A model generated the notes under the pieces. The model did no database searches. It worked only from the letters and a program-made list of their open reading frames with translations, and had not been told where the DNA came from. From Acidobacteriota bacterium (GTDB lineage: Bacteria; Acidobacteriota; Vicinamibacteria; Vicinamibacterales; SCN-69-37), in contig JADYYY010000002.1 in the NCBI GenBank assembly GCA_020853395.1, forward strand, positions 20,609 through 84,608: a stretch of 64,000 nucleotides of DNA. The letters run 5' to 3'. Of the stretch, positions 31,420 through 56,026 are shown one piece after another. A program made the translations under genes and the position numbers. Numbering within the stretch: position 1 is the stretch's first letter; each line of letters begins with the position of its first letter.

Positions 31420-31567
31420 GCAGTTGCCGCCGCGCTCCCCTGCTCAGCAGCGCCGGCGGACGCTACGCCACCCAGGAACAGTGGGACGTCCCGCTGGACG
31501 AGCGGCCGGCGGCGCCCACCCGATTCCTGGCGCGATGCGGGCCGCCCCTGAGACATCCCGTGAATCG
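31416..31567 (+). pseudogene. Decayed, frameshifted duplicate of the last ~150 nt of gene A1
   Basis: 31416-31567 aligns with 31198-31348. Both start AACTGCA. Shared blocks are CAGTGGGAC.TCC...TGGACGAG, an 18/18 identical CCCGATTCCTGGCGCGAT, and GA.ACAT.C.GTGAATCG. Indels break the reading frame. Confidence 0.55.
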
Positions 31568-31576
31568 TGCTTCGGT

Positions 31577-32314
31577 TCAGAATCGCAGCCGGACGCCGCC
31601 GCCGATCTGAAAGCCGCCGACCTTGATCTTCGTGTCGCCCGGCAGCGAGCCGGACGCGCGCTGGTAGCGCAGCAGGACGCCGACGTCCACGCGCTCCGTC
31701 AGGTCGTACTTCAGGTCCAGGCCCACTTGCACGCCGACGAGCGTCTTGCTGACCCGGCCCACGTGGGAATCGAGCTCCGGCGTGTCGCCCGGCTCGCTCA
31801 CGTCGATCGAGGACACGAGATCCTCCTGGACGCGCACCGCCGCGGGGCCGGCGAACGCCTGTGCCGTGACCTGGTTGTCCAGGAGCCTGATCGGCAGGTC
31901 GTACAGGACCACACCGCCGATCCACAGCTCGCGGTGAACGAGCGAGGGGACGTTTCCGGTGATCGCGCGCGGCGAATCGAACCGAATCGGATCCGGCAGG
32001 TCGGCGGTCAACCGGCCGTCGGACGTCGACGAGCCGCCGTTCACGTTCACGCCGACCGACCACGGCCCGCGCAGCGGAATTCCGCCCGTGACGTCGAACA
32101 CGATCCCGCCCGTTCCGCGCGTGACCGACAGGGTTGCGGGCTCGTTGTACAGGTCGAACGCCAGCCGCGTCGTGACGTCCGGCGAGCCTGTCTGCACCGC
32201 CACGTTCGCGTTCACGAACACGCGAGCCGTTGTCGGCGTCGCCTGCGCCGCCGCGCTCGTTGCGCCGGCGACCAGCAGTCCCAGGCTCCACACCAGTCCC
32301 ACTCCTCGTTTCAT
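31577..32314 (-). CDS. Small outer-membrane beta-barrel protein (barrel A), paralog of 43086..43820
   Basis: 245 aa. Signal LLVAGATSAAAQ|A, amphipathic strands and C-terminus GGFQIGGGVRLRF. Shares LPDP..FD....TG.V.SLVH.E.W with barrel B. Confidence 0.8.
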   Translation of the reverse strand: MKRGVGLVWSLGLLVAGATSAAAQATPTTARVFVNANVAVQTGSPDVTTRLAFDLYNEPATLSVTRGTGGIVFDVTGGIPLRGPWSVGVNVNGGSSTSDGRLTADLPDPIRFDSPRAITGNVPSLVHRELWIGGVVLYDLPIRLLDNQVTAQAFAGPAAVRVQEDLVSSIDVSEPGDTPELDSHVGRVSKTLVGVQVGLDLKYDLTERVDVGVLLRYQRASGSLPGDTKIKVGGFQIGGGVRLRF

Positions 32315-32486
32315 CCAATCCCCCTCGAGCGATCGCGCACGTCAGCGACGATGGTTCAGCCGCGCGGCGATCGTCTCTCTGGCGCGCGGGAACGAACGCG
32401 CCGCATTGTATGATAGGCGCGCGTTTGGAGAACGCCGGTGCGCCACGAAATCGACGCGCTGCGCAAGTTGAACGGGAGCACGTTGC

Positions 32487-33548
32487 ATGAGACAGAAGAC
32501 CAAGTGGTGGAGTGTGGCCTCGGGAATCGCGTCGGCGCTCATGATCGCCTGCTCGCAGTCTTCGAACCCGATCGTTCCCGGCGCGGTGCCGGGTGACTTC
32601 GGTGCGGGGCCGAGCGGCGAGACGTTGAAGATCGCGGCGCCGCCGTTGGTGTCTCCCGTCAACAACGCCGAGTTCTCGCCGAACTCGCCGATTGTGCTGC
32701 GCTTCCAGAACGTGAACGGGACGTTCAAGGCGTTTCCGGTCAGCTATGAGGCCCAGGTGCTGAGCGGCAACAACGTGGTGGCGACCGAAACGACCGGCGC
32801 GGCCGGCGGCAGCACCTCGTCGGTGACGGTTCGCACGAAGCTCAACGCCGAGTCGAACTACTCGTGGCGCGTGCGCGCGACCTACAACGGCGCGTTCGGG
32901 CCGTGGTCCTCGACCGCCACCTTCCGGACGCCCCCCTCCGCGTTCCTGCGCGGCAAGGAAATTTTCGATCCGCTCACGAACGGCTTCTCGGTCGGCAAGG
33001 TGACGGGCGGCACGTTCCTGCCGGGTGTCGGCTGGCGCGCCAACACCGGCACGGACGGCATCGACTACGACATCGAGACCTGCGAGCGCTGCCGGCTGGA
33101 ATTCGACGTCCTCGGGTTCGACGACGGCGGATACGCGTTCGGCCGGTTCGAGCCGAAGATCCTCAGCATGGGCGACGGCACCGCCTTCGGAAGCTTCGGC
33201 GCGTTCCGCGATCACGACTGGAAGATGCACTTCTCCATCCGTTCCGACGGCGACGGCACGGGCCTCGACGTCGTCTGGCGCAACGGCGAAGCGGGCGACG
33301 GCGATCCGGGCGATCATCGGGTCAAGGTGGAGCCTGGTCCGCGCTGGAACGAGATGCAGGCCTCGCACGTTGTGGTCGAGTGGGACCAGGGCGGATACCG
33401 GATCTTCGTGAACGGCGACGAGTGGGCGTCCGACGGGTGGGGCGAATCGTTCGGTCCGCCCAACCATCGGATTCAGCTCGGCTGCATCCCGCGCGCCGAG
33501 ACCTTCGAGTTCGCGATCTGGCGGAACGTGCAGTTGAGACCGTTCTAA
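32487..33548 (+). CDS. Lipoprotein A2: FN3-like module + jelly-roll (LamG/ConA-like) domain, function unknown
   Basis: 353 aa. Lipobox LMIAC|S and post-lipobox SSNPIVP. Module ends YSWRVRATYNGAFGPWSSTATFRTP. The C-terminal domain carries DGIDYDIETCERCRLEFDV, FRDHDWKMH, GDGDPGDH and AIWRNV. Paralog of 43845..44897. Confidence 0.82.
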   Translation: MRQKTKWWSVASGIASALMIACSQSSNPIVPGAVPGDFGAGPSGETLKIAAPPLVSPVNNAEFSPNSPIVLRFQNVNGTFKAFPVSYEAQVLSGNNVVATETTGAAGGSTSSVTVRTKLNAESNYSWRVRATYNGAFGPWSSTATFRTPPSAFLRGKEIFDPLTNGFSVGKVTGGTFLPGVGWRANTGTDGIDYDIETCERCRLEFDVLGFDDGGYAFGRFEPKILSMGDGTAFGSFGAFRDHDWKMHFSIRSDGDGTGLDVVWRNGEAGDGDPGDHRVKVEPGPRWNEMQASHVVVEWDQGGYRIFVNGDEWASDGWGESFGPPNHRIQLGCIPRAETFEFAIWRNVQLRPF

Positions 33549-33623: not shown

Positions 33624-34463
33624 CTACTGCTTCTTGACGACGACGTCGAACGCCCCGCTGTTGTCCTTCATCTCGTCGTCGTTGATGCTCAGCATCAGCC
33701 GGCCGGACGCCGGCATCGTGATCGGGTCGGTCTTGTCGCCGATGAGGAACATCCTCGTGCCGACGCGACCGACGAGCGCTCCGACCGGGCCATTCGGTAC
33801 GGGCACGTTCTTGCGGCGCCCCACGCTCATCGTGCCGGCGGGCGGCACCGCGGTGTTCTCATTGATCTTCACTTGACCGCTGGCCGAGAAGGCGACTTTC
33901 TCGTCGGCGGTGACCGTGATGGCGGTATCGACCCAGCGCTGCGTCGCCGACACGCGCACCGTCGTACCCGATCCGCCCGAGGCCGACGAGGCGACGGCGT
34001 CGCCGCCGAAGAGCGAACGCGCGCTCGGCGCGCTGAGATACAGCCGCGCGACATCGCTCATGTTGAAGCTCTGCCGATCGACGCCGCCCGACCCCGTGCG
34101 CGTGTCGAACACGACGCGCGAGTCGTTCGTGAAATCGTAGAGCTTGCCCTTGATGGCGCGCCCGTCCTTGAGCACGAGCATGTGGCGTTCGAGCTCGGGC
34201 GGGTTGTCACCGGTCGGGAGCTGGCCGACCTCGGACTTCGCCGGGCTCGCGTCGGCGAATGCGATCATCGCGATGTCGTCGAACTTGTAGCCCCGCTCGG
34301 TCTCCCCCGACACGAGATAGACCTCCGCGCCCTGCCGGTAGACGAGCTGGCCCGACTGACGCTCGCCGTTCTTCAAGACGAACGTCGCATCGGCCGCGCT
34401 CAAGAGAGCGCTGGCGGCAACGAACGCCACCCCTGCCATGACGAGAGACAATCTGCGAACCAT
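33624..34463 (-). CDS. Secreted protein with C-terminal LecA/PA-IL-like lectin domain
   Basis: 279 aa from ATG 34463. Sec signal VAASALLSA|ADA. Two N-terminal repeats (VLKNGERQSGQL / VLKDGRAIKGKL). The C-terminus GALVGRVGTRMFLIGDKT..ASGRLMLSINDDEMKDNSGAFDVVV parallels LecA GALVMKIGNSG...[23 protein letters not shown]. Confidence 0.72.
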   Translation of the reverse strand: MVRRLSLVMAGVAFVAASALLSAADATFVLKNGERQSGQLVYRQGAEVYLVSGETERGYKFDDIAMIAFADASPAKSEVGQLPTGDNPPELERHMLVLKDGRAIKGKLYDFTNDSRVVFDTRTGSGGVDRQSFNMSDVARLYLSAPSARSLFGGDAVASSASGGSGTTVRVSATQRWVDTAITVTADEKVAFSASGQVKINENTAVPPAGTMSVGRRKNVPVPNGPVGALVGRVGTRMFLIGDKTDPITMPASGRLMLSINDDEMKDNSGAFDVVVKKQ

Positions 34464-38148: not shown

Positions 38149-38168
38149 TGGTACTATCGTCTGGCCTG

Positions 38169-39329
38169 ATGTCCACGCAGACTTTCCGGCTCCGCTACCT
38201 CACCAAAGCGGCGGCAGGCGTGCCCCGAGACCTGGTCCAAGGAGCGGTGTCTCACGTCACCGCGATCCGGCCGACCGTGCTGATTTTCAACTGCACGTGG
38301 GTCTGCGACGCGCGCTGCGAGATGTGCAACAACTGGAAGTGGGGCAACCGGAAGGAAGACCTCACGCTCGAGCAGCTCGATCGCGTCCTTGCCGGCGATT
38401 TCTGGCACGCCGTGGAGAACCTGAACGTCTCGGGCGGCGAACCCACGACCAGAAACGACCTGCCCGACATCGTGGAGCTGTTCGTGCGGCGGCTGCCCCG
38501 CCTGCGCAAGGTGGGCATCAACACCACCGGGCTGACTCCGCAGCGTGCGATCCCGATGCTCACGCGCATCGTGGAGTTCTGCGGCGCCCATGACGTCCCC
38601 GTCAGCATTCGCGTGTCGCTCGACGGCATCGGCGACGTGCACGGCGAAGTGCGGCACGTCAAGAACGGCTTCGACAAGGCCGTCAAGACCATCGAGGCCA
38701 TGCAGGCGCTCGCCGCGCGGGCGCCGCACTTCCAGTTCGGGCTGGCGTCGACGATCTTCGCGAAGAACCTCGAGGACGCCACGCGCATCCGCGACTGGGC
38801 CCGCGCGCGGAATCTCGACATCGTCTTCAACATGCTCCGGTTCACGGACAACATGCTGCACAACCGTGATCTCGAGCGGACCATCGCGTTCGGGAGCCGC
38901 GAGGAAGAGTACATGCGCAAGTTCTTCCTCGACCGCGTGGCCGAGGAGTCGGTGCTGAGCGGCCAGGCGTTCATGTACCTGCACTACGCCGACATGATCG
39001 CCAACGGGTACCACCGCACCATGCCCTGCCCGTTCCAGCGGCAGGGGCTGCTGCTGAATCCGAACGGCGATCTCTTCTACTGCGAGAACTCGGCGAAGCT
39101 CGGCAACGTGCTCGAGACGCCGGCGGCCGATCTCTACTTCGCGGAGAAGAGCCTCGAGCAGCGGAAGGCCCTGAAGCGCGACACGTGCCCCACGTGCCTG
39201 AGCCCGTGCCAAGTCAACGTCGGCGCCATGAAGCAGGTCGTGCCCTACGTGAAGTTCCTCGCCCGCGCCTACCAGGTCAAACACGACCCTACGCGCCATC
39301 AGGACACGCTGCCAGACCCCGTGCGGTGA
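38169..39329 (+). CDS. Radical SAM enzyme with Cys-rich (twitch/SPASM-like) C-terminus, paralog 1
   Basis: 386 aa from ATG 38169. Cluster motif CDARCEMC (CX3CX2C) followed by NNW, and SAM motif SGGEP. C-terminal cysteines CPFQ..YCE..CPTCLSPC. Confidence 0.85.
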   Translation: MSTQTFRLRYLTKAAAGVPRDLVQGAVSHVTAIRPTVLIFNCTWVCDARCEMCNNWKWGNRKEDLTLEQLDRVLAGDFWHAVENLNVSGGEPTTRNDLPDIVELFVRRLPRLRKVGINTTGLTPQRAIPMLTRIVEFCGAHDVPVSIRVSLDGIGDVHGEVRHVKNGFDKAVKTIEAMQALAARAPHFQFGLASTIFAKNLEDATRIRDWARARNLDIVFNMLRFTDNMLHNRDLERTIAFGSREEEYMRKFFLDRVAEESVLSGQAFMYLHYADMIANGYHRTMPCPFQRQGLLLNPNGDLFYCENSAKLGNVLETPAADLYFAEKSLEQRKALKRDTCPTCLSPCQVNVGAMKQVVPYVKFLARAYQVKHDPTRHQDTLPDPVR

Positions 39330-40285
39330 TCGCCCGCAGCCTGCTGATTCGACTGGCCGTCGCGACGGGGTTGACCGCGATCATCGTCTGGATGGCCGAC
39401 CCGCGGGCCATCGGCGCCGCGCTCGCCGGCGTTTCCTGGGGATGGCTCGCCGCCGCGTGTGCGCTCGTGCTCGTCGATCGGGCGGTGATGGCCTACCGGT
39501 GGTGGGCGCTGCTCACGCCGCTCGCCCAGCATCGGCCGCGCCTCGCTCCCGTCATGCGGATCTTCTTCGTGAGCACGTTCGTCGGCACGTTCCTGCCGGC
39601 GAGCGTGGGCGGCGATGCCGTGCGAGCCTGGAGTCTCTCACGCGAGAACGTGCCCGGACCGGCGGCTGTCGCCTCGGTGGTGCTCGATCGCATGCTGGGC
39701 GTGGCCGGCGTGCTGCTCGTCGCGGCGGCCGGCCTCGCGCTGGCGCCTCGCCTGGCGGGCAGCACGGCGGTGCGGGCGGCGTTCGTCGTCACGGCGTTGG
39801 GATGCCTGCTGTGTCTGGCCGTGATCTTCAGCGAGCGCGTGGACGACGTCGTCAGACGATCGCTCGCTCGAGCGCCAGGCCGGCTCGGCGCGCTCGCGGC
39901 GAATGGCCTGTCCGGCCTTCAGCTCTACCGGACGGAGCACCGGCAGTTGCTGCTCGTGCTGATCGCCTCGGTGGCCGTCCAGGCGCTCCGGATCCTGCAG
40001 GCTTGGTTCCTCGGCCTGAGCCTCGGCGTGGCGGCGCCGCTCACGGCGTACATCGCGTTCGTGCCGGTGATCCTGCTGGTGATGTTGCTGCCGGTGACGG
40101 TCAACGGCCTCGGCACGGCGCAGGTGGCCTTCGTCTGGGCGTTCGCGCAGGTGGGCGTTTCGAGCGCGGACGCCGTCGCGTTGTCCGTGCTGTTCGTCGG
40201 CCTCGGGATCGTCGGCAACCTGCCCGGCGGCGTGCTGTACCTTTCGGCCGCCAGGACGCGCCGCCCGTCGCCCATGCATCAGTGA
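39326..40285 (+). CDS. UPF0104 / LPG-synthase-TM-region family membrane protein (flippase-like), copy 2
   Basis: 319 aa from GTG 39326 (GTGA overlap with the radical SAM stop). Hallmarks FVGTFLPASVGGDAVRA and LPVTVNGLGTAQ. Confidence 0.75.
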   Translation: MIARSLLIRLAVATGLTAIIVWMADPRAIGAALAGVSWGWLAAACALVLVDRAVMAYRWWALLTPLAQHRPRLAPVMRIFFVSTFVGTFLPASVGGDAVRAWSLSRENVPGPAAVASVVLDRMLGVAGVLLVAAAGLALAPRLAGSTAVRAAFVVTALGCLLCLAVIFSERVDDVVRRSLARAPGRLGALAANGLSGLQLYRTEHRQLLLVLIASVAVQALRILQAWFLGLSLGVAAPLTAYIAFVPVILLVMLLPVTVNGLGTAQVAFVWAFAQVGVSSADAVALSVLFVGLGIVGNLPGGVLYLSAARTRRPSPMHQ

Positions 40286-41250
40286 CGGACAGGCGGATGC
40301 CAGTGCTGGCGAAAGGCCGCGACGATCGCCGCCGCGGCGATGCGGTGTGCCACGGCGTTGGGGTGCGCGTCGAACTGCGTGATCTGGAGTGACGCCGGGT
40401 TCCTGACGGACGCGAACGCCGGCAGCAGGTCGAGGAACGGCACGCCCTCGGCCGCGAAGATCTTCTCCACACGGTCGTCGAGGAACCGGAACGGATACGC
40501 CGACGGATCGCGCGTCATGCTGTAGAACGCCGGGAACATCACGCCGCCCGCCGGCACGCCGGCGGCGCGCGCGCGTTCGAGGAAGCGCCGCAGCATCGCG
40601 GACGTCTCGACCGACTCCGCGGAGCTCGGATCGCGCAGATGTCGGATGACGAAGTCGGGATAGCCCTCGGTGACGCTGAGCTCGACCTGCAGCCGGTACC
40701 AGTCGTCGACCGCGAGGTGATAGAAGGCCGACGATTCTCGCAGCGTGTGGTCGAGCGATACCGGCAGCAGCGGGATCATCTGCGGGCGGTGGCGCTGCAT
40801 GCCCGACGTCTCGAAGTCGTTCTGGAAGAGCTGGAGCAGCACGAAATCCGGGTGGCAGCCCAGCGCCGTGTCCAGCGTGTCGACGTGTTCGGGCAGGTTG
40901 TTGCCGGACAGCCCGAAGTTGAGCACTTGGTACGCCGGACCGAGAAGCCGCTCCATCTCGTTCGTGAATCGGGCGTCTTGCTCGACGCCGACTCCCCATG
41001 TGAACGAGTCGCCGATCACGGCGATGCGGTACCGGCTGGGTTCGCTGTCGTCGAACTCCCGTTCACGGAAACCGCGACGGTTGACGTAGACGCGAGGCCG
41101 GGGCTCGAAGGCGCGGCCTCTCAGCACGAACCGGGCGGCGGCCTCGGCGGCCGCGAGCGCCAGCACGCAGCTGATGGCCGTCACGCCGACACGCGCCATC
41201 GTCCGGCCGAGGTCGAGCCGCCGTCGAGAGGAGGGAGAGGTCACGGGCAC
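40279..41250 (-). CDS. Membrane-anchored SGNH/GDSL hydrolase
   Basis: 323 aa (alternative start ATG 41199). N-terminal TM anchor, block I IAVIGDSFTWG, C-terminal DAHPN (block V-like). Confidence 0.78.
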   Translation of the reverse strand: MPVTSPSSRRRLDLGRTMARVGVTAISCVLALAAAEAAARFVLRGRAFEPRPRVYVNRRGFREREFDDSEPSRYRIAVIGDSFTWGVGVEQDARFTNEMERLLGPAYQVLNFGLSGNNLPEHVDTLDTALGCHPDFVLLQLFQNDFETSGMQRHRPQMIPLLPVSLDHTLRESSAFYHLAVDDWYRLQVELSVTEGYPDFVIRHLRDPSSAESVETSAMLRRFLERARAAGVPAGGVMFPAFYSMTRDPSAYPFRFLDDRVEKIFAAEGVPFLDLLPAFASVRNPASLQITQFDAHPNAVAHRIAAAAIVAAFRQHWHPPVRH

Positions 41251-41269: not shown

Positions 41270-41782
41270 TCAGGACGTGCGTTTCAGGCCGGTCCGGCGC
41301 GTGGCCCGCAGCACGATGATGGTGCGCTCTTCGACGTGCACGGCGCGCGAGACACGAGTATCGCGAAGGATGCCCGCAACGGCCTCGAGCGCCTGTCGCT
41401 CTCCGGGCGGGACGCCCTTCTCCAGCGCATCCCGGATCGACAGCTCGAGTTGCGGCACGTTGCACGGCTGCTTGAGCGAGATCAGCGCGCGGCCGTTGCC
41501 GATCGGCACGAGCTCGACGCCCGGCAGGCGCTTCAGCGCGCGCACGGGGGTGACGACGATGACCGCGTGCCGGCCGTAGGCGGTGAGCTCGGCCGGCCCG
41601 CTCGCGCGGCGCGTGCGCGCCCGGCGTGGAGCCCGCTCGGCGACGTGCACGATCGCTCTGGCCAGGTCGGCGTCGATCGACGCCAGGTTCTGCAGAACGT
41701 CTTCGGGCAGCCGGATGGTGATGGCGCGAGCGGGCCGCCCGAACTTCTTCGGGCGGCCGGGACGGGCTTTGACGAGCGTCAT
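41270..41782 (-). CDS. Putative DNA-binding protein (AT-hook-like + ribbon-helix-helix-like N-terminus), unknown C-terminal domain
   Basis: 170 aa from ATG 41782. N-terminus MTLVKARPGRPKKFGRPARAITIRLPEDVLQNLASI. Divergent from the B1 operon. Longer starts (41806, 41854) are possible. Confidence 0.55.
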   Translation of the reverse strand: MTLVKARPGRPKKFGRPARAITIRLPEDVLQNLASIDADLARAIVHVAERAPRRARTRRASGPAELTAYGRHAVIVVTPVRALKRLPGVELVPIGNGRALISLKQPCNVPQLELSIRDALEKGVPPGERQALEAVAGILRDTRVSRAVHVEERTIIVLRATRRTGLKRTS

Positions 41783-41946
41783 CGATTGCCTCGGGACGGG
41801 CGCCATTCTACCCCATCGACTTCCACCGGTCAGGTTTTTGCCGAGAAAATCCATCTGACGGCTAATTATGTTTGTGAAATGAGGTGCACCCTGGATACAA
41901 TCGCCGCCGGCCGCGCGGTCGTGGTCCCGCCGGTGCACCGTGCCGA
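41783..41946. promoter_or_regulatory. Divergent promoter/operator region between the regulator and the lipoprotein operon
   Basis: Locally AT-rich (GCTAATTATGTTTGTGAAATGAGG). Imperfect palindrome GTCAGGTTTTTGCCGAGAAAATCCATCTGAC (41829-41859). Two copies of the 8-bp palindrome GGTGCACC (41883-90, 41932-39). Confidence 0.5.
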
Positions 41947-43089
41947 ATGAGACGATTCATTGCCCCGCATCTCCTCGTGCTGAGCGCCGCCGGATTCCTG
42001 GTGGCCTGTCAGAGCAAGACGACCGAACCGTCGCGCACCGTTGTCGTTGGAGACACCGGCGGCGTGTCCGCGGCGCTGACGGCGCCGGCGCCCGACTCGC
42101 CCGCCGATCGGACGCAGCTCTCGACGTTGCGTCCCACGCTCACGGTGCGCAACGGCACCTCCACGCAGGCTGGCGCACGCGTCTACGAGTTCCAAGTCTC
42201 GGATCAGGCGTCGTTCGCCAGCATCGCGCCCGCGTCGCGCTACTTCGCCGTCGTCGCCAATGCGACGGACGTGGCGGAGGGCACCAACGGCAGCACGAGC
42301 TTCACGCCCGCGCAGGATCTGCAGCCGACGACCAGGTTCTACTGGCGGGCGCGGGTGCGGCAGGGCACGGCCGTCTCCCAATGGTCGGAGACGCGGACCT
42401 TCAACAGCAAGCTCGTCGGGTACAACCGGCCGGGCGAGCTCTACGACCCGCTGATTCACGGCGAGACGGTCGGCGAGCGCATCGGCGCGACCACGTTCGT
42501 GGCCGGCAAAGGCCTGCGGATCGAGAACCAGCAGAGCTACGTCCGGTATGCCCTGCCGCAGACGATCGCCGCCGGCGAGTTCTCGGTCGAGATCGAAGGC
42601 CTGCGGCCGAACGGTCCGGGCGGGAAGCTGAAGCTGTTCTCGATGTTCAACGGGACGGGCGACCTGCTCGCGAGCAAGTACCTCATGAACGTCCAGTACC
42701 GCGGCGTTCCGGGCAACCCCGACAACGCGATCTCCTTCAAGACCCTCTTCGGCGACGAGGACTACAAGCTCGAGCCGGACTTCGGCACGCGCGCCGCGAA
42801 CGTCCTGATCGCCGATCCGGCCACCGCGTACTACTGGAAGGCAACGTGGAGCAACGAGTTCAGGCTCACCGTCCAGCGGGGCGGCCCGACTGGGTCCACC
42901 TTCTACAACGTCGGCGTCGTCTCGCCGGGCGGCAGCTACGGTCCGAGCCCGCACTACGCCTACCTCGGCGCGACTGACGGCAACTACGGCGTCGAGGACG
43001 GCTCCTGGCCTGGCGCCATCTATCGCAACGTCTGGATTGGTAATCGTCCGCGGCCCGAATCGCTCGGGAGCGCGCTCCTCTTCCCATGA
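41947..43089 (+). CDS. Lipoprotein B1: FN3-like module + LamG/ConA-like jelly-roll domain, function unknown
   Basis: 380 aa from ATG 41947. Lipobox FLVAC|Q. Module ends RFYWRARVRQGTAVSQWSETRTFNS. Jelly-roll part GELYDPLIHGETVGE...AAGEFSVEIEGL...KLFSM...AIYRNVWIG. Confidence 0.82.
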   Translation: MRRFIAPHLLVLSAAGFLVACQSKTTEPSRTVVVGDTGGVSAALTAPAPDSPADRTQLSTLRPTLTVRNGTSTQAGARVYEFQVSDQASFASIAPASRYFAVVANATDVAEGTNGSTSFTPAQDLQPTTRFYWRARVRQGTAVSQWSETRTFNSKLVGYNRPGELYDPLIHGETVGERIGATTFVAGKGLRIENQQSYVRYALPQTIAAGEFSVEIEGLRPNGPGGKLKLFSMFNGTGDLLASKYLMNVQYRGVPGNPDNAISFKTLFGDEDYKLEPDFGTRAANVLIADPATAYYWKATWSNEFRLTVQRGGPTGSTFYNVGVVSPGGSYGPSPHYAYLGATDGNYGVEDGSWPGAIYRNVWIGNRPRPESLGSALLFP

Positions 43090-43820
43090 CACATCGGCGG
43101 TCGGTGCGATGCTGGTGCGCCGGTGCGATCGCGCTGGCAGGGCTGACCGTGGCCGCGCGTCCGGTCACGGCGCAGGACGAGCCGCGCGCCCGTGCGTTCG
43201 TCAACGTCGATGTCGGCGCGGCGTTGACCGCGAAGGCCGACGACACACGGTTCGTGTTTCCGCTCTACGGCGAAGACGCCAGCGTCGGGCTCGCGCGGAA
43301 GATCGGCCGCGGCGGCGTGTGGGATCTCACGGGCGGCGTGACGCTGACGCAGCAGTTCGGCGTCGCCGTCCATTACCGCCGGCTCTCGAGTTCGGCCGCC
43401 GGCGCACTCGACGCCTCGCTCCCCGACCCGGCGTTCTTCGACACGGCCCACAGCGTCACCGGCGCCGTCGAATCGCTCGTGCACGAGGAGACCTGGTTCG
43501 CCGGGCTGCTCGCCTTCCGCGTCCTGACGAGGCCCGGGCTCGACGTCACCGTGCTCGGGGGTCCTGCCGTGGTGCGCGTGACCCACGAAGTCGCGGCGGA
43601 CGTCACGGCGCCGACGATCGCCAGCGTCGCGTTGACGCTCGAGAAACGGACTCGCGACTTGATGGGGGGCCAAATCGGCCTGGACGTCCGTCGGATGCTC
43701 GGCCGGCGAATCGGCATCGGCGGGTTCGTGCGCTACAGCGCCGCGAAGGGCCATCTCGGCGCGTACCGTGCGGACCTCGGTGGCGTCCAGGTCGGCGGCG
43801 GTGCCCGGCTGCGGTTCTGA
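43086..43820 (+). CDS. Small outer-membrane beta-barrel protein (barrel B)
   Basis: 244 aa. ATGA overlap with B1. Signal ...AARPVTAQ|D and C-terminus GGVQVGGGARLRF. Paralog of 31577..32314. Confidence 0.82.
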   Translation: MTHRRSVRCWCAGAIALAGLTVAARPVTAQDEPRARAFVNVDVGAALTAKADDTRFVFPLYGEDASVGLARKIGRGGVWDLTGGVTLTQQFGVAVHYRRLSSSAAGALDASLPDPAFFDTAHSVTGAVESLVHEETWFAGLLAFRVLTRPGLDVTVLGGPAVVRVTHEVAADVTAPTIASVALTLEKRTRDLMGGQIGLDVRRMLGRRIGIGGFVRYSAAKGHLGAYRADLGGVQVGGGARLRF

Positions 43821-43844
43821 CGGCCGGCGACCAAGAGACCGCTC

Positions 43845-44897
43845 ATGACGAGAAACGGATTCCTCCTCGCCAGCGCGATGGCCGCGCTGATCCTTGCGGC
43901 CTGCGACAGCGGCAGTAGTCTCACCTCGCCGTCCGGAACGGGCGGTGATGCCGCGGCCGCGGCAGACGGTTCCACGCTGAAGATCGCGGCCCCTACCCTC
44001 ATCTCACCCATCAACGGCGCACAGGCCGCCGGGCCGTCGATCGTGCTCACGGTCAGCAACGTGTCCGGCACCTACACGACGTTTCCCGTCACCTACGAGG
44101 TCGAAGTACGCGATCCGGCTGGGACGATCGTGGCGCACCCGACGTTCCCGAAAGGCAACGCCGGCTCGAGTTCGTATGCGTTGACGACGCCGCTCGCCTT
44201 CGACACGACGCACACCTGGCGCGCTCGCGCGACCTACTCGGGGCGCGTCGGGCCGTGGTCGTCGACCGGCGCGTTCAGGACGGGCCAGGCGGCGTTTCTT
44301 TCTGGATCGTCCGTCCTGGATCCGCTCACCACCGGCCGCACGGTCGGCAAGCAGCGCGGCGGGCACTTCGTCGCCGGCCAGGGCTGGCAGGCCGACACGC
44401 GCAGCGACGGCATCGACTACGACATCGCGACATGCGCCAGTTGTCGGCTCGAGTTCGACGTCACGAACGTCGGCAACGGTCTCGGCAACGGCGCCGATCT
44501 GAAGTTCATCTCGATGGGCGACGCGGCGATGTTCGGCGACTTCAACTCGTTCCGCGACCATCCGTGGAAGATGCACCTCGAGCAGCGCGGTGACGGCGAC
44601 GGCAAGGGGATGAAGCTGATCTGGCGCAACGGCGCCGTCGGCGACGGCGATCCGGGCGACCACCTCGGACAGGTGCCCTCGAATGGCCCCGCCTGGAGCG
44701 CGTCGCGCGTGTTCCATTTCGTGATCCAGTGGGGTCGCACGAGCTACACCGTATCGGTCGACGGGCAGGTCTGGTTCTCGGGCTCGTTCGCCGCGCCGTA
44801 TGCGCCGCCCAATCATCGCATCTCGCTGGGCACCTACCCGCGTTCCGAAACGCTGGCCGGAGCGATCTGGCGCAATGTGACGGTGACGCCGCAGTAG
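43845..44897 (+). CDS. Lipoprotein B2: FN3-like module + jelly-roll domain (paralog of A2)
   Basis: 350 aa. Lipobox LILAAC|D. Motifs HTWRARATYSGRVGPWSSTGAFRT, DGIDYDIATCASCRLEFDV, FRDHPWKMH, GDGDPGDH, AIWRNV. Confidence 0.82.
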   Translation: MTRNGFLLASAMAALILAACDSGSSLTSPSGTGGDAAAAADGSTLKIAAPTLISPINGAQAAGPSIVLTVSNVSGTYTTFPVTYEVEVRDPAGTIVAHPTFPKGNAGSSSYALTTPLAFDTTHTWRARATYSGRVGPWSSTGAFRTGQAAFLSGSSVLDPLTTGRTVGKQRGGHFVAGQGWQADTRSDGIDYDIATCASCRLEFDVTNVGNGLGNGADLKFISMGDAAMFGDFNSFRDHPWKMHLEQRGDGDGKGMKLIWRNGAVGDGDPGDHLGQVPSNGPAWSASRVFHFVIQWGRTSYTVSVDGQVWFSGSFAAPYAPPNHRISLGTYPRSETLAGAIWRNVTVTPQ

Positions 44898-45236: not shown

Positions 45237-46331
45237 ATGCACACCAATCAGATCGGCCTTGGCGCGTCGGTGCTCGGCGCGAACGTGCGCTCCCCGCGTC
45301 TGCCCTACAAGGTGACGTTCGTCGCCACCTACCAGTGCAACTTCCGCTGCGTGATGTGCAACATCTGGCAGAAGAAGAGCACGAACGAGATGACGCCGGC
45401 CGAGGTGGAGCAGTTCTTCAGCCGCTGGCCGCAGTTCCGTTGGGTGCATCTGACCGGCGGCGAGCTCTTCATGCGGCGCGATCTCGACGACCTCATCGCG
45501 GCCATCCAGCGGAGCTGCCGGTCGCTCTTCCTGCTGAACTTCCCCACGACCGGTTGGTTCGGCGACAAGACCGTCTCGCTCGTCGAGAAGACGCTCGAGC
45601 GCGGCGTCGGACGCCTCATGACGACCGTCAGCCTCGACGGCCCGAAAGCGCTGCACGAGTCGCTGCGGGGCCTGCCGGGCAGTTGGGATCGCGCGATCGA
45701 GACGTTCCGCCGTCTGCGCGGCATCAGGAGATCGAACTTCCAGACCGTCATCGGCATGACCCTGATGGAGCAGAACGCCGACAAGGTGGACGAGACCGTC
45801 GCGGCGGTCCGGCAAGTCATCCCCGATTTCCAGCAGAGCGAGCTGCACCTGAACATCGGGCACGAGTCCGGCCACTACTTCGCGAATCTCGGGAAGGGTG
45901 GCGTGTCGGGGCACCATGCGGCGATTCTGCGCGCCGTGGAGGCGCACCGGCGGAAGACCGGGTCGCCGTTGCACCCGGTCAAGTTCCTCGAGGACCGCTA
46001 CCAGGCGCTCATCCGCAAGTACTACGAGACCGGCCGGTCGCCCCTGCCCTGCACTGCCCTCTCGTCGTCCTGCTTCATCGACACGTACTGGGACATGTAC
46101 GCGTGCTCGATCTGGGACGAGAAGGTGGGCAACCTGCGCGAGAACGGCTTCGATCTCCGAGCGCTCTGGGATGGTGCGCGCCGGAAGGAACTGCGGGAGG
46201 ACGTCGTCAACGAGCGCTGCTCCCATTGCTGGACGCCGTGTGAGGCCTACCCCACGATTCTCGGCAACCTCGGCCGGGCGGTGTTCAGCCGGACGTCGGC
46301 CGAGAAGACCGCGTTGCCGGCGACGAGCTGA
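45237..46331 (+). CDS. Radical SAM enzyme with Cys-rich (twitch/SPASM-like) C-terminus, paralog 2
   Basis: 364 aa. Cluster motif CNFRCVMC followed by NIW, and TGGE SAM motif. C-terminal cysteines CTALSSSC..ACS..CSHCWTPCE. Confidence 0.85.
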   Translation: MHTNQIGLGASVLGANVRSPRLPYKVTFVATYQCNFRCVMCNIWQKKSTNEMTPAEVEQFFSRWPQFRWVHLTGGELFMRRDLDDLIAAIQRSCRSLFLLNFPTTGWFGDKTVSLVEKTLERGVGRLMTTVSLDGPKALHESLRGLPGSWDRAIETFRRLRGIRRSNFQTVIGMTLMEQNADKVDETVAAVRQVIPDFQQSELHLNIGHESGHYFANLGKGGVSGHHAAILRAVEAHRRKTGSPLHPVKFLEDRYQALIRKYYETGRSPLPCTALSSSCFIDTYWDMYACSIWDEKVGNLRENGFDLRALWDGARRKELREDVVNERCSHCWTPCEAYPTILGNLGRAVFSRTSAEKTALPATS

Positions 46332-46361: not shown

Positions 46362-47045
46362 TTGCGGATGTCCGCGGCCACGGTCACCGTCGTCATCCCG
46401 ACGCGCAACGAAGAAGGGATGATCGCCGAGATCATCGACGGCGTCCGGCCCTACGCGGACGAGGTGCTCGTCGTGGACGGCCACTCGACCGACCGCACGG
46501 CCGAGATCGCGCGATCGAAGGGCTCCCGCGTCGTCCTCGACAACAAGAAGGGCAAAGGCGAGGCGCTGCGCCTCTCGCTCAAGGAAGCCAAGAGCGACAT
46601 CGTCGTCTTCATCGACGCCGACGGTTCGCACGACGCGCGCGACATCCCGGCCATGGTGGCGCCGATTCGCGCCGGCACGGCGGACCTCGTCATCGGCTCG
46701 CGCGGCCGCGGCGGCAGCGACGAGCTGCACGGCACGGTCGACCAGTTCATCCGGTACATCGGATCGCAATTGATCATGCTGGCGATCAACTACCGCTGGC
46801 ACGTGCGGCTCACCGACAGCCAGAACGGCTTTCGAGCCATCCGGCGCGACGTCGGCTTGAAACTCGGGCTCACGTCGAACCTGACGACCATCGAGCAGGA
46901 AATGCTCATGAAAGCGCTGAAACAGGGCTATCGGGTCGACGAGATTCCCAGCCACGAGTACGAGCGCAAGTGGGGCGAGTCGAAGGTCGTCGTCTGGAAG
47001 CTGTGGTTCGCCTACGTCTGGTCGTTCCTTCGCAACCTCGTCTGA
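46362..47045 (+). CDS. Soluble GT2 glycosyltransferase, polyprenyl-phosphate sugar synthase-like (Dpm1/Ppm1-type)
   Basis: 227 aa. Motifs VVIPTRNEEGMI, VLVVDGHSTDRT and FIDADGSHD (DxD). Confidence 0.8.
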   Translation: MRMSAATVTVVIPTRNEEGMIAEIIDGVRPYADEVLVVDGHSTDRTAEIARSKGSRVVLDNKKGKGEALRLSLKEAKSDIVVFIDADGSHDARDIPAMVAPIRAGTADLVIGSRGRGGSDELHGTVDQFIRYIGSQLIMLAINYRWHVRLTDSQNGFRAIRRDVGLKLGLTSNLTTIEQEMLMKALKQGYRVDEIPSHEYERKWGESKVVVWKLWFAYVWSFLRNLV

Positions 47046-47049
47046 GGCC

Positions 47050-48783
47050 ATGGAGAGAGGCGCTCGCACCGGGCTGACCCGCGGCCGCGCGCTGCTCCTG
47101 CTGTCGCTCGTCACGCTCGCCGGCGGCGTGCTGCGCTTCGTCGGGATCGGCTGGGGCGCGCCGTACTTCCACTTCCACATGGACGAGCACTACGTGTTCA
47201 TGGGGGCCGACCTGCTCCGCAAGAGCATGCGCGACGCCGCCATGAGCGGCAAGTTCTTCATGTACGGCCCGCTGGCCATGTACGGCCTGAACGTCGTGCG
47301 CAGCGTGTACGAGAGCGTCAGCCACGAGCTGGTGCTGACGGTGTTCGACGATCAGGTCACCTACATGCGGATGGGACGCGCCATCTCGGCGGCGTTCAGC
47401 ACGGCGACGATCGTGCTGGTGTACGCGATCGCCGCGCGCGTCGCCGGCCGGCTCGCCGGCCTGCTGTCGGCGGCGTGCCTGGCCGTCACGGTGCTGCACG
47501 TTCGCGACGCGCACTTCTTCTCCGTGGACATGACGCTGACGTTCTTCTGCGTCCTGACGTGGCTGTGCGCCCTTCGGATGGCCGAGCGCGGCACGGCGCT
47601 CTGGAGCGTGCTCACGGGCAGCGCGTTCGCGCTCGCGCTCACGGCGAAGTACTCGGCCGCCTTTCTCGCGATCCCGATCGCGCTGGCCCACCTGCTCTCG
47701 CCCGCCCGGCCGTCAGCGCTGCGCGCCTGGGCGTCATGGCGCCGATGGGTGCTCCTCGGCGCCCTCATGGTGGCCGTCACCATCGCGACGTTTCTCGTCG
47801 TCGATCCGATGGTCGTCGCCTACTACGACAAGTTCCGCGAGGACGTGCGCCAGCAGATCACCGATCCGCTCACGGGCACGACGCGGCCGATGTACATGGC
47901 GCACTTCTCGGACCTGACGCACCCGCGCGTCTTCTGGTTCACGAACCTGCTCTGGTGGGGCATGGGGCCGGCGCTCGAGATCTGGGCGCTGGCCGGCGTG
48001 ATCTGGCTGCTCGTGCGCCGCAACAAGGCGGCGCTCGTCTCAGCGGTCGTGCCGCTCGCCTACTTCACGGTGGCGGGCAACTCGGTGGCGCCGTTCATCC
48101 GCTACGCGATTCCGATGGCCACGGCGCTCTCGGTGGCCGCCGGCGTGCTCAGCGCCGATCTCATCGCGCGCCGGCGATGGCGCCCGCTGGCCATCGCCGC
48201 CACGGCCGCCGTCATCGGCACGAGCGCGCTCTGGGCCGTCGCCTACACCCACATCTTCCGGACACCCGACACGCGGCTCGTGGCATCCCGCTGGATCATG
48301 CGGAACATCCCGCGCGGCGCCCCGGTCCTCGTCGAGCCGTCGCACAACATCCCTCCGACCGGTTCGCATCTGACGAACGTCGATTTCTACGGCAACTACG
48401 TCCTCTTCTATCCGGAGACCGAGCGCCGCGATCACTTCCGGCTCATCGCGCTCGATACGTACCGGAGCCTGTACAACCGCGGCCCGACGGACGAGTGGCG
48501 GCGCGAGTACATCGCCTCGCGCCTGCAGCTCGCCGACTGGATCGTCATGGACGACACGTACGTGCAGTGGTTCACGCATCTGCCCGCACCGGAGTACGCC
48601 GTGATGAAGCAGTACTACCGCGATCTGTTCGGCGGCCGGCTCGGCTTCGAGCTCGTGCGGACGTTCAAGACCCATCCGTCGCTCTTCGGCTACGAGATCG
48701 ACGACGATGCGTCGGAGTTCTCGTTCCGGTTGTTCGACCATCCGCGGATCTGGGTGTTCAAGCGGACCGGGGACGCCAGATGA
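47050..48783 (+). CDS. GT-C family membrane glycosyltransferase (PMT_2 / DUF2298-like)
   Basis: 577 aa. First loop FHFHMDEHYVFMGA, about 11 TM helices, and C-terminal soluble domain ending EFSFRLFDHPRIWVFKR. Confidence 0.72.
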   Translation: MERGARTGLTRGRALLLLSLVTLAGGVLRFVGIGWGAPYFHFHMDEHYVFMGADLLRKSMRDAAMSGKFFMYGPLAMYGLNVVRSVYESVSHELVLTVFDDQVTYMRMGRAISAAFSTATIVLVYAIAARVAGRLAGLLSAACLAVTVLHVRDAHFFSVDMTLTFFCVLTWLCALRMAERGTALWSVLTGSAFALALTAKYSAAFLAIPIALAHLLSPARPSALRAWASWRRWVLLGALMVAVTIATFLVVDPMVVAYYDKFREDVRQQITDPLTGTTRPMYMAHFSDLTHPRVFWFTNLLWWGMGPALEIWALAGVIWLLVRRNKAALVSAVVPLAYFTVAGNSVAPFIRYAIPMATALSVAAGVLSADLIARRRWRPLAIAATAAVIGTSALWAVAYTHIFRTPDTRLVASRWIMRNIPRGAPVLVEPSHNIPPTGSHLTNVDFYGNYVLFYPETERRDHFRLIALDTYRSLYNRGPTDEWRREYIASRLQLADWIVMDDTYVQWFTHLPAPEYAVMKQYYRDLFGGRLGFELVRTFKTHPSLFGYEIDDDASEFSFRLFDHPRIWVFKRTGDAR

Positions 48784-48899
48784 CGTGCGCGTTCGGCGCG
48801 CCGCGTGCGTGCTCGACGGACGCCGGATGAGGCGGCCCTGCCGTCGACCAGCCGCGGCCGTTTGCCGGTCGACGTCTTTTTCGCCACAATAGCTCTCCT

Positions 48900-49790
48900 G
48901 TGAGCTCACGGATCGTCTCGACGCTGGCTGCGGCCACCACGGTCTGGCTGGCGGCCCTGGCGTCGGGTTCCTGCAACGGCAAGTCGCCGGTCACGCCGGG
49001 GCCGACACCGCAACCCGTCAACAACGCGCCGCCGGTCATCCAGACGGTGAGCGTCGCCGCCGGCTCAGGTCGCCTGGAGCCCGACACCGACGTCGAGGTG
49101 ACGGCGCAGGTGCAGGATGCGGAGTCGACGCCGGCGAGCCTCACGTACGTGTGGTCCGCGACGGTCGGGACGTTCACCGGCTCCGGCCCTGCCGTGAAGT
49201 GGCGCTTGGCCAGCGGCGTCGTCTCCGCCCCTACCGCCGTGGTGGTTCGGCTCGAGGTCGTGGAGCGCTATCAGAGCTACGATGCCGCCGGCAATGCGAT
49301 CACGAAGGAGAACCGCGTCAGCAAGGATGCCGCGGCGTTCATCGTCCACGACTCGGTTGCGGAGATCTCGAAGATCACCGTCCGGTTCCTGGTCGATCTC
49401 TTCGGCAACTCCAACGTCCCGGCCGAGGCCTGCGTCGTCGACTTCTGGGACGATTGCCGCGGCAAGTCCGATGAGCTCGGCGACATTCAGGTGAATCGGC
49501 AGCTCTTCCAGGTGCTGAGCGCGCAGGCGACCGTGCAGTCGGTGACGTTCCGCAACGCCAACACCGCCGACGTCGTCGCGGCCTGCCGGTGGCAGGACCG
49601 CGTCATCGCAAACGGCTCGCAAGGCGTCTCGGAAGGCCCGTGCCTGCTGACCGCCGTCTATCACAACGACCGCTGGTGGCTCTGCAGCAGCAGCGTCGAT
49701 CACGACCTCTTCCGGCGATGGTGTCTCGACGGCACGTCCTCGTGCATCCCGCCGGCGCCGACGACCTTCAGCATCCGACGCTACGTGTAA
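48900..49790 (+). CDS. Lipoprotein B3: Ig/PKD-like segment + Cys-rich C-terminal domain, function unknown
   Basis: 296 aa from GTG 48900. Lipobox-like ALASGSC|N and a Pro-rich tether. Segment LTYVWSATVGTFTGSGPAVKW. Seven Cys in the C-terminal half. Confidence 0.7.
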   Translation: MSSRIVSTLAAATTVWLAALASGSCNGKSPVTPGPTPQPVNNAPPVIQTVSVAAGSGRLEPDTDVEVTAQVQDAESTPASLTYVWSATVGTFTGSGPAVKWRLASGVVSAPTAVVVRLEVVERYQSYDAAGNAITKENRVSKDAAAFIVHDSVAEISKITVRFLVDLFGNSNVPAEACVVDFWDDCRGKSDELGDIQVNRQLFQVLSAQATVQSVTFRNANTADVVAACRWQDRVIANGSQGVSEGPCLLTAVYHNDRWWLCSSSVDHDLFRRWCLDGTSSCIPPAPTTFSIRRYV

Positions 49791-55414: not shown

Positions 55415-56026
55415 CTAGCGTCTCGTCCGCCGCCGCCAAATCGCCAGCGCAACCCCGACGATGCCGACCGAGACCGCTATCCAGATCGAAATGGCCGGCA
55501 GATTGTCGCGGATGAACGCCGTCGCGTGGTCGCCGTACCGGTAGGCCAGCCAGGCCTCGCCGAAGAATCGGGACCCGCGCCCGAGCGCCACCGCGGCAAG
55601 GAACGTCGCGGGCGTGATGTTGGCGATCCCGGCGAGCAGCACGAAGATCTTGAACGGCGCGGGCGGCGGCAGGATTGACGGCACGATCACCACGAGCATC
55701 CCGTAGCGCCGGAACAGGCCCAGGCCCCGATCGATGTGCTCCGCTCGAAAGCGCTTCCGAAGGAACGCCTCGCCGCCCTTCCGCGCAAGGGCGTAGATCG
55801 CATAGCAGCCGGCCGTCGAGCCGAGCGTGGCGCCGAGGGCGTAGTACGGCCAGCGCAAGGGCTCGTGCAGCACCGCCAGCACGAGCAGCGCGTCGGCCAC
55901 CTCTGGCAGCGACAGGAACGACGAATCCAGGAACGCGACGAGCGCGATGCCCGGGGCGCCGAGCGACTGGGCGAGCGGCTGAATCCACTGCGCGAGGCGC
56001 TGGAGAAGGTCAGTAACGCGGTGCAT
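55415..56026 (-). CDS. DedA/YqaA-family membrane protein
   Basis: 203 aa. Typical layout: ALVAFLDSSFLSLPEV, re-entrant GxxxG-rich segments, Arg-rich C-terminus. Confidence 0.8.
   Translation of the reverse strand: MHRVTDLLQRLAQWIQPLAQSLGAPGIALVAFLDSSFLSLPEVADALLVLAVLHEPLRWPYYALGATLGSTAGCYAIYALARKGGEAFLRKRFRAEHIDRGLGLFRRYGMLVVIVPSILPPPAPFKIFVLLAGIANITPATFLAAVALGRGSRFFGEAWLAYRYGDHATAFIRDNLPAISIWIAVSVGIVGVALAIWRRRTRR

Follow-up and report, generated by a model that had tools for sequence, protein, structure and literature searches.

An apparent operon encoding two jelly-roll lipoproteins and a small beta-barrel in a cell-envelope glycan locus of Vicinamibacterales

The DNA considered here, which we call the window, is a 64-kb stretch (64,000 nucleotides [nt]; GC content, 69.7%) of the genome of an uncultured soil Acidobacteriota bacterium of the order Vicinamibacterales (assembly GCA_020853395.1, contig JADYYY010000002.1, positions 20,609 to 84,608), and it contains three adjacent genes, B1, Bb, and B2, that encode a lipoprotein, a small outer membrane (OM) beta-barrel, and a second lipoprotein, respectively. 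The trio is best explained as an operon of three envelope proteins serving a roughly 40-kb locus for a cell-envelope glycan, a locus that is specific to the Vicinamibacterales. As to function, we favor, tentatively and with somewhat more doubt than confidence, a role for the lipoproteins in binding or trimming the glycan of this locus at the OM, with the small barrel acting as a partner and not as a conduit. The features of the trio are as follows, in window coordinates.

B1, 41947-43089, plus strand: lipoprotein, 380 amino acids (aa); N-terminus MRRFIAPHLLVLSAAGFLVAC followed by Q; open reading frame (ORF) and translation
B1 lipobox LVAC, Cys21, nt 42007-42009, plus strand: followed by a tether of about 25 residues, then an FN3/Ig-like domain at about aa 44-152 and, at about aa 157-371, a divergent jelly roll of ConA type
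Bb, 43086-43820, plus strand: OM beta-barrel, 244 aa; C-terminus GGGARLRF; ORF and translation
Bb signal peptide, about aa 1-29, plus strand: predicted cleavage after VTA
B2, 43845-44897, plus strand: lipoprotein, 350 aa; N-terminus ...ALILAAC followed by D; ORF and translation
B2 lipobox LAAC, Cys20, nt 43902-43904, plus strand: followed by a disordered tether (aa 21-45)
B2 FN3-like domain, aa 46-145, nt 43980-44279, plus strand: from the AlphaFold2 (AF2) model
B2 ConA-like jelly roll, aa 150-350, nt 44292-44894, plus strand: from the AF2 model; polar surface strongly conserved
Divergent promoter-like region, 41805-41901, between B1 and its divergent neighbor reg222: TTGTGA-18-TACAAT on the plus strand, CTGACC-17-TAGAAT on the minus strand
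ATTTTC(G/T)CG box, 41842-41850, minus strand: conserved, inside the reg222/B1 promoter-like region

Because of the high GC content, no real gene in the window is free of overlap with long spurious ORFs, and the frames of B1, Bb, and B2 were picked out by the GC content of third codon positions (0.87 to 0.88). That they are genes and not chance ORFs follows from the many homologues of each: 414 for B2 at an E value of ≤1e-3; 1,325 for B1 in an exhaustive HMMER search, 129 of them at ≤1e-30 and the full-length relatives being 360 to 390 aa long; and 37 for Bb. Proteins identical to B2 (IT184_00835), Bb (IT184_00830), and the related lipoprotein A2 discussed below (IT184_00785) are on record from a 489-kb contig of an Acidobacteria metagenome-assembled genome, each as "hypothetical protein." The tight packing on one strand described in an earlier note, which had been made from the sequence alone, was seen in full: the B1 stop and the Bb start share an ATGA overlap (TTCCCATGACAC), and 24 nt separate Bb from B2. 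Sigma-70-like sites between 41000 and 45400 were confined to the 140-bp gap between reg222 and B1 (three, against 0.4 expected by chance), and no terminator-like site was seen downstream of B2. By these signs B1, Bb, and B2 appear to be transcribed as a unit.

The lipoboxes proposed for B1 and B2 were borne out, with a Cys column that is invariant in the alignments of 61 B2-family and 35 B1-family sequences; the strict pattern [LVI][ASTVI][GAS]C, as expected of signal peptidase II substrates, is present in 51 and 28 of these sequences, respectively, and in both B1 and B2. In most members of both families the Cys is followed at position +2 by G or S, a residue that under the E. coli +2 rule (which may not transfer to this phylum) would not hold a lipoprotein in the inner membrane. 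The AF2 model of B2, built from 61 sequences (predicted local distance difference test [pLDDT] score, 88.5; predicted template modeling score, 0.73), has a disordered stretch at aa 1-35, an FN3-like beta-sandwich of eight short strands, and a two-sheet jelly roll with a block pLDDT mostly above 90. Foldseek searches of the PDB with the whole model gave 334 matches at an E value of ≤1e-3; the best listed are mostly LamG/LNS domains, the Hc-N domain of BoNT-Hc, galectin, the GH16 protein Crh5, a PL7 alginate lyase, and a levan-utilisome chain, with some FN3 pairs and multidomain glycosidases also among them. As the scores run from 1e-6 to 1e-5 with a query template modeling score (TM-score) of at most 0.38 and no match stands out, this result identifies a fold class, not a family. 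The B1 family (alignment A4) aligns with the B2 family (alignment A1) over 341 columns with an hhalign probability of 100% and an E value of 1.9e-67, and B1 and B2 are therefore full-length distant paralogues, in both of which the jelly roll would present a conserved polar face. The FN3-like stalk and the LamG/ConA-like jelly roll previously ascribed to both hold, for B2 by modeling and structural comparison and for B1 by full-length homology to the B2 family.

At the level of sequence the two lipoprotein families carry almost no names. Scans of all six proteins of the trio and of the second module described below gave no Pfam or NCBIfam model at its curated cutoff for B1, Bb, or B2, and scans of every member of the B1 and B2 family alignments gave only subthreshold FN3/Ig and Laminin_G_3 matches. 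Weak Ig_Rha78A_N matches were found in 32 of 61 B2-family and 19 of 35 B1-family members, together with weak fn3 matches; for this model the A-module lipoprotein A1 scores 36.7 bits (cutoff, 27.4) and B1 scores 20.5 bits, and B2 has no match. Profile searches of the PDB with both families returned eukaryotic FN3 domains only (approximately aa 50-150; E values, 2e-4 to 4e-4). The best 120 of the 414 B2 homologues are 45 to 75% identical to B2, and all 414 are unnamed or annotated as "FN3 domain-containing." Invariant charged residues in the B2 jelly roll are D159, D205, K220, K242, R248, D250, R261, D272, and R333, with E203, H273, and H291 near invariant; the B1 family retains the equivalents of E203, K220, R248, and W260/R261. 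The FN3/Ig_Rha78A_N-like unit of B1 also occurs in 6 to 33 copies in giant proteins of 1,400 to 6,600 aa (P0168, P0178, P0183, P0212, and P0228).

The earlier note had taken the middle gene for a barrel with a signal peptide and a GGGARLRF end, and modeling agrees. The AF2 model of Bb, from 36 sequences (pLDDT, 88.2), is all beta after the signal helix, with ten strands (residues 37-46, 50-60, 63-73, 77-86, 91-113, 121-149, 152-177, 180-205, 209-224, and 227-243) joined by connections of 2 to 7 residues. Strands 5 to 8 are unusually long, at 23 to 29 residues, and judging from their length and the topology they may protrude above the membrane. Foldseek ranked OmpA first (1bxw; E value, 6e-6), followed by pOmpT/Pla, OprG/OmpW, Ail, and NspA, with E values up to 3e-4; a polysaccharide secretin (4y25) appeared at rank 38 with a TM-score of 0.22. 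With about ten strands and these nearest folds, Bb is a small barrel of OmpA/OmpX/OmpW/OmpT size and not a channel of porin or Slam size. The family conserves a turn, (S/L)(I/L)PDP, that follows strand 5; within the strands it conserves an HxE pair (strand 6), GP (strand 7), and, in the Gly-rich last strands, the pattern GG.Q.GGG.R.RF. The final residue is F in 34 of 36 relatives.

Bb is more divergent than the lipoproteins, finding 3 matches alone and 37 by profile. PF13505 (OMP_b-brl) is annotated in 10 of these 37 relatives; Bb itself has no match to it at an E value of ≤1, Ab, the barrel of the A module, scores 27.6 bits against a gathering threshold of 28.7, and the barrel profile finds OmpW in the PDB at an E value of 0.8 only. 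Bb is probably a remote member of this very large superfamily. In its model it has the structural hallmarks of small OM barrels, namely, a signal peptide, a closed antiparallel barrel of 8 to 10 strands, and a C-terminal aromatic residue, and it shares the signal peptide, the aromatic beta-signal, and the closed barrel with the OmpA N-terminal domain, OmpX/Ail, NspA, OmpW/OprG, and the 10-strand OmpT/Pla. It differs from them in that the query TM-score is only 0.4 to 0.5, that the loops are short but four strands reach 23 to 29 residues, that the motifs listed above are specific to its family, and that this family is linked to a single glycan locus within a single order of Acidobacteriota.

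The conservation of these genes was followed through 43 related loci, all of the named ones from Acidobacteriota/Vicinamibacterales, with families mapped by hidden Markov models and adjacency counted over 39 informative B2-family genes. A barrel gene adjoins 27 of the 39, on the opposite strand in 25 and on the same strand in 2 (the window trio and locus L026), and the fuller loci show the same surrounding glycan locus. Thus, of the claim that the trio is a conserved module, the linkage between the barrel and the B2-type lipoprotein stands, and the same-strand trio as a conserved unit does not, the barrel being divergent in 25 of the 27 adjacent cases. The commonest arrangement, found in about 24 loci, is that of a second module in the window, the A module: big630 membrane protein and GT4 genes, A1 (plus), barrel (minus), B2-family gene (plus), A3 (minus), x684, and then radical SAM and LPG_synthase_TM genes, with A1 upstream of, and convergent with, the barrel. 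The two short loci of the closer barrel alignment (A6) both have this arrangement. A further module lacks the barrel and reads GT2 (plus), B2-family gene (plus), reg222 (minus), SGNH gene, B1-family gene (plus), and PMT (plus); most neighborhoods that combine B1- and B2-family genes are without a barrel, the two adjoining each other directly in loci L019, L021, and L034. The order reg222 (minus), B1 (plus), barrel (plus), B2 (plus) recurs only in the organism of loci L040 and L041, where the barrel is 54% identical to Bb; the same-strand order of L026 is a different one (A1, barrel, B2-family gene). Several genomes have, like the window, two B2-family genes 11 to 12 kb apart. Adjacency of a barrel and a B2-type gene is kept across three orientations (the window A module, the window trio with L040/L041, and L026), a genuine linkage that has withstood rearrangement. 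The barrel is linked still more generally to the glycan locus than to the lipoprotein: in the distant locus L037 (7770-10661 of a 2.9-Mb contig) the barrel lies beside a big630 homologue and an SGNH gene, and the right flank shares EPSP (5-enolpyruvylshikimate-3-phosphate) synthase, HATPase_c_2, inositol monophosphatase, VTT, and GT2 genes with the window. In locus L001 (9084-9817, minus strand), the barrel is split into two called ORFs (118 and 140 aa), by either a frameshift in a pseudogene or a long-read assembly error.

The A module was regarded in the earlier note as a duplicate of the trio, at 30211-33548. Its members are as follows.

A1, 30211-31344, plus strand: lipoprotein, 377 aa (LALNC); two FN3/Ig_Rha78A_N-like domains
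Ab, 31577-32314, minus strand: barrel, 245 aa; divergent from A2; 38% identical to Bb
A2, 32487-33548, plus strand: B2-family lipoprotein, 353 aa (P0072); 47% identical to B2 over the full length
A3, 33624-34463, minus strand: secreted protein with about 100 C-terminal residues resembling PA-IL/LecA; likely start MVRRLSL at 34463, within an ORF extending to 34625

Ab/Bb and A2/B2 are indeed paralogous pairs, A2 having weak fn3 and Laminin_G_3 matches. The trio as a whole was not simply duplicated, since Ab lies on the minus strand and A1 has an architecture unlike that of B1: after its FN3 units A1 continues with the (SP)6 linker SPSPSPSPSPSP and a Cys-rich C-terminal domain of about 120 aa for which no Pfam or PDB match was found. 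A1 lacks a jelly roll, has only the FN3 unit in common with B1, and is not its orthologue. In neighbor-joining trees, which carry no support values, B2 falls among the A-type genes (nearest, L001), and Bb and the L040 barrel together are sister to Ab; this branching is suggestive of a barrel and lipoprotein pair that was copied together into a B1 neighborhood. In most related loci an A3 gene is kept directly downstream of the B2-family gene of A type, and in a phmmer search of the PDB A3 matched PA-IL (E value, 1.6e-3) and PllA (1.7e-3), a likeness to galactophilic lectins.

Both modules lie in the glycan locus, which extends from about 17000 to 57500 of the window between housekeeping genes (methionyl-tRNA synthetase, Dtd, EPSP synthase, and shikimate kinase) and encodes a periplasm-oriented glycan pathway. 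Its content includes three GT4 and two GT2 glycosyltransferases (of the two GT2s, one most resembles AglJ and PpgS, which are polyprenyl-phosphate-sugar synthases), a hexapeptide acyltransferase, an NAD-dependent epimerase, an SGNH protein, two to three LPG_synthase_TM genes (including those at 22805-24085 and 39185-40285), and a GT-C glycosyltransferase of the PMT_2 type together with at least five further multipass membrane proteins (5 to 8 hydropathy segments by a crude count). None of these further proteins has a Pfam family or a sequence relative in the PDB, and only the PMT_2 protein matches a GT-C family; searches of the PDB with reg222, x684, big630, and the PMT-like protein likewise gave no match. 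Related loci contribute extra genes for methyltransferases and HldE/GmhA-like heptose functions. Among the window proteins scanned, no Wza/OPX (outer membrane polysaccharide export), Wzc, Wzx, Wzy, ABC transporter, or synthase-type porin was found. The trio is a lineage-specific accessory part of this locus and is neither a self-contained export machine nor an independent module. The genes nearest the trio, and two others of the window, are as follows.

Radical SAM protein, upstream, 38160-39326, plus strand: PF04055, E value 2.8e-11
LPG_synthase_TM, putative lipid-linked-sugar flippase, 39185-40285, plus strand: PF03706, E value 1e-42
SGNH/GDSL hydrolase or acyltransferase, 40279-41250, minus strand: PF13472, E value 7.5e-14
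reg222, 41270-41806, minus strand: conserved basic protein of about 178 aa, divergent from B1; start uncertain (41806 or upstream, up to 41938)
Radical SAM/SPASM protein, downstream, 45237-46331, plus strand: PF04055 and PF13186
GT2 of polyprenyl-phosphate-sugar synthase type, 46362-47045, plus strand: PF00535, E value 4e-26
PMT_2-type GT-C, 46921-48783, plus strand: PF13231, E value 1e-13, and PF02366, E value 6e-9; at least 9 predicted transmembrane helices; start uncertain
x320, 48831-49790, plus strand: 319 aa
DedA/VTT gene, 55418-56026, minus strand: within the glycan locus
Barrel of Phenol_MetA_deg type, 13645-14562, minus strand: 305 aa; PF13557, E value 5e-5; outside the glycan locus, among housekeeping genes

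The best NCBIfam matches of the GT2 at 46362-47045 are AglJ, dolichyl-phosphate hexose transferase, and PpgS, all under their cutoffs. The flanking cassettes of radical SAM, GT2, and GT-C genes that had been described on both sides of the trio are present downstream; the upstream flank consists of x684, a 683-aa multipass membrane protein with 7 hydropathy segments by a crude count, and the radical SAM and LPG_synthase_TM genes, and has no GT2. The two radical SAM proteins each contain a CxxxCxxC motif (CDARCEMC and CNFRCVMC), lie beside an LPG_synthase_TM or a GT2 gene, and match no specific NCBIfam family; a hopanoid-type cassette (HpnH/HpnB) as the identity of the radical SAM and GT2 pair was rejected at approximately 27 to 30 bits against cutoffs of 225 to 379. 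The x320 gene lies beside the PMT-like GT-C gene in several genomes, and its only match is the NCBIfam "lipo-invert C-terminal anchoring domain," under the cutoff (E value, 0.002).

The regulator assigned to the trio is, as a gene, well conserved. reg222 is always divergent from B1-family genes and contains an invariant motif, RGRPxKYGRPARAVTVTLPEDIL, that joins an AT-hook-like core to a ribbon-helix-helix (RHH)-like strand (alignment A5). The DNA binding implied by calling it a regulator has behind it weak AT_hook (5 of 10 members), RHH_1, RHH_5, and BrnA matches, with E values of 0.02 to 1, and a role as a DNA-binding regulator is plausible on these sequence features. In 12 loci the region upstream of the reg222 homologue retains the ATTTTC(G/T)CG box together with a TAGAAT element. 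Within the window the exact box occurs once and its one-mismatch matches are as many as chance predicts (17, against 17.1), which gives no sign that the box is a mark of the promoters of barrel or lipoprotein genes.

The layout of the trio is unlike that of Slam and SusC/D, as had been noted, and unlike that of the 16- to 18-strand polysaccharide porins, and none of the features that define these systems was found. A functional analogy for B1 and B2 is with SusE/SusF and the surface glycan-binding proteins of Bacteroidota, which likewise have a lipidated Cys, a linker, an Ig/FN3 spacer, beta-sandwich domains of carbohydrate-binding type, and a neighboring barrel. The likeness extends to weak SusE matches in Pfam scans of 2 of 61 B2-family members and to the Foldseek match with levan-utilisome chain 8a9y_E. 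SusE/SusF loci are catabolic, however, whereas B1 and B2 stand in a biosynthetic context of glycosyltransferases, a GT-C protein, and flippases, and SusC/SusD form a 22-strand TonB-dependent barrel with a SusD lid, in contrast to the approximately ten strands of Bb. No TonB_dep_Rec, Plug, or SusD match was found in the trio or the neighbors scanned, and a complex of this type was rejected, the barrel being far too small. A barrel and lipoproteins within a polysaccharide locus are also a feature of PgaA/PgaB, AlgE/AlgK, PelB/PelC, Myxococcus Wzp, and Wzi, but the PgaA, AlgE, Wzp, and Wzi barrels are built of 16 to 18 strands and serve as a channel for the polymer or as a large lectin. Wzi is an 18-strand OM lectin (PMC3791409), and the Wzp porins are 18-strand, PgaA-like proteins paired with OPX proteins (bioRxiv 10.1101/2022.02.11.480155). 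Membership of this group was rejected because Bb is too small and because no Poly_export/OPX/Wza, tetratricopeptide repeat (TPR) partner, or synthase was found among the window proteins scanned.

For the working of Bb the best analogy is MipA-MltA, in which a barrel of about 250 aa docks a glycan-processing lipoprotein; an actual relationship was rejected, in that neither Bb nor Ab matches MipA/OmpV (PF06629) at an E value of ≤1 and the lipoproteins are unrelated to MltA. By this analogy, or by that with the surface glycan-binding proteins, the role that we tentatively favor would run as follows. The glycan would be assembled on the periplasmic side from polyprenyl-phosphate sugars by the GT2 synthase, the putative flippases (LPG_synthase_TM and DedA type), and several multipass membrane proteins, including the PMT_2 GT-C; the jelly rolls of the lipoproteins would hold and possibly trim it at the OM; and Bb, embedded in the membrane, would dock or otherwise partner either the B2-type lipoprotein or the glycan, and would not be a channel. 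Besides the linkage of the genes, we count in its favor the third lectin-like gene near the pair, the LecA-like A3. Several observations weigh against it: 12 of the 39 B2-family genes, mostly those beside B1-type genes, have no adjacent barrel; no FN3/jelly-roll lipoprotein lies within 8 kb of the L037 barrel; B2 itself has Asp at position +2; and neither B1 nor B2 belongs to any lectin family at the sequence level, Laminin_G_3 (PF13385) having no match in either, 16.5 bits in A2 (cutoff, 27.6), and weak matches in 10 of 61 B2-family members (best E value, 0.0054). In addition, the charged residues of the B2 family form a pattern that would suit an active site better than a simple lectin.

That last observation leads to a reading to which we give roughly one chance in favor for every few against, namely, that the jelly rolls are enzymes, a new family of lipid-tethered glycanases, lyases, or transglycosylases that would trim the polysaccharide of the locus, with the barrel independent or serving as a scaffold. 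Glycanase genes are common in polysaccharide loci, and ExoK (GH16), AlgL, and PslG have a trimming role in other exopolysaccharide loci. Successive strands bear charged and aromatic residues that are invariant or nearly so (E203-x-D205-x-T207, K220, K242/R248, W260/R261, D272/H273, and H291), the Foldseek matches include the GH16 transglycosylase Crh5 (6ibu; TM-score by target, 0.52) and the PL7 alginate lyase 8bxz, and the subset of these residues retained in B1 is what one would expect if one paralogue were catalytic and the other had diverged. The motif of GH16, however, is not complete: where GH16 has E-x-D-x(-x)-E, the B2 family has E203-F-D205-V-T207, with a nearly invariant Thr in place of the acid/base Glu, and membership of GH16 was rejected, with no Glyco_hydro_16 match. 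No CAZy-type Pfam family was matched at any threshold, and the noncatalytic LamG, BoNT-Hc, and galectin folds rank equally high. Less likely still is that there is no dedicated module at all, the barrel being a generic structural protein of the OmpA/OmpX class, the lipoproteins acting independently, and adjacency reflecting the shared regulation of envelope genes. The B2-family genes that lack a barrel, the L037 barrel that lacks lipoproteins, the position of the barrel outside the operon and divergent from it in the commonest arrangement, and its probable remote membership in the broad PF13505 superfamily all fit this account; yet the adjacency has outlasted at least three rearrangements of orientation, the pair was apparently duplicated together, and the barrels in all 9 of 9 barrel-anchored loci, as well as those in other collected loci, lie in or beside glycan-locus genes.

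The lipoproteins could instead be substrates, with tethers glycosylated by the adjacent polyprenyl-phosphate-sugar synthase and PMT_2 GT-C to give a glycoprotein coat held by the barrel, as modeled on the O-mannosylation of actinobacterial lipoproteins by Ppm1/Pmt. The AglJ/PpgS-like GT2 and the PMT_2 GT-C downstream of B2, the gene orders GT2 to B2 family and B1 family to PMT in other genomes, and the disordered, S/T/P-rich tethers, along with the (SP)6 linker of A1, agree with such a process, which we nonetheless consider improbable: the PMT_2 family also spans ArnT-like lipid and glycan transferases, conservation is strongest in the jelly roll and not in the tether, and we know of no glycosylation sequon for this phylum. 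The earlier note had proposed, as a working hypothesis, that the barrel anchors or exports the two lipoproteins. Export is unlikely, because a barrel of about ten strands and of the OmpA/OmpT class has no room for a folded lipoprotein of 35 kDa. A Slam-like translocon that flips both lipoproteins to the cell surface is, accordingly, the reading in which we place hardly any belief, even though a barrel gene between two lipoprotein genes in one operon recalls Slam genes, which typically adjoin those of their substrates (PMC5449769). The resemblance ends there, and Slam (type XI; DUF560) was rejected as the identity of Bb: Slam, a proteobacterial protein, joins an N-terminal TPR domain to a DUF560 barrel of 14 strands (PMC5449769), whereas Bb, at 244 aa, has no N-terminal domain and no TPR or DUF560 match at an E value of ≤1, its about ten strands are nearest to OmpA/OmpT/OmpW folds, and most B1-B2 pairs elsewhere have no barrel. 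A bolder reading, and one that we put forward only as a long shot, is that the barrel and the jelly-roll lipoproteins form an OM insertion or attachment device of a kind not described before for a periplasmically assembled, lipid-linked glycan, either a miniature analogue of LptDE or a lateral gate like that of OmpW; if true, it would explain surface delivery from a locus in which no Wza, Wzx/Wzy, ABC, or synthase-type exporter was found.

Vicinamibacterales are among the most abundant uncultured Acidobacteriota of soil, and to our knowledge almost nothing is known of their envelope; our searches of the literature on lipoproteins, the OM, and glycosyltransferase clusters of Vicinamibacter and Vicinamibacterales found nothing relevant. 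All parts of the system described here use common folds. What is new is two unnamed lipoprotein families, a locus-specific barrel family, and their conserved association in a locus that is rich in multipass proteins and in which the scans found no exporter. The glycan locus represents a conserved, lineage-specific pathway built largely on polyprenyl-phosphate sugars and multipass membrane proteins, and for the OM it encodes only a small barrel and a group of FN3/jelly-roll lipoproteins. The jelly-roll domain could be the type of a new family that binds carbohydrates or acts on them. Should the barrel and the lipoproteins not cooperate, they would amount to three more hypothetical envelope proteins of common fold; if they do, they would represent a new way of holding or processing an envelope polysaccharide at the OM.

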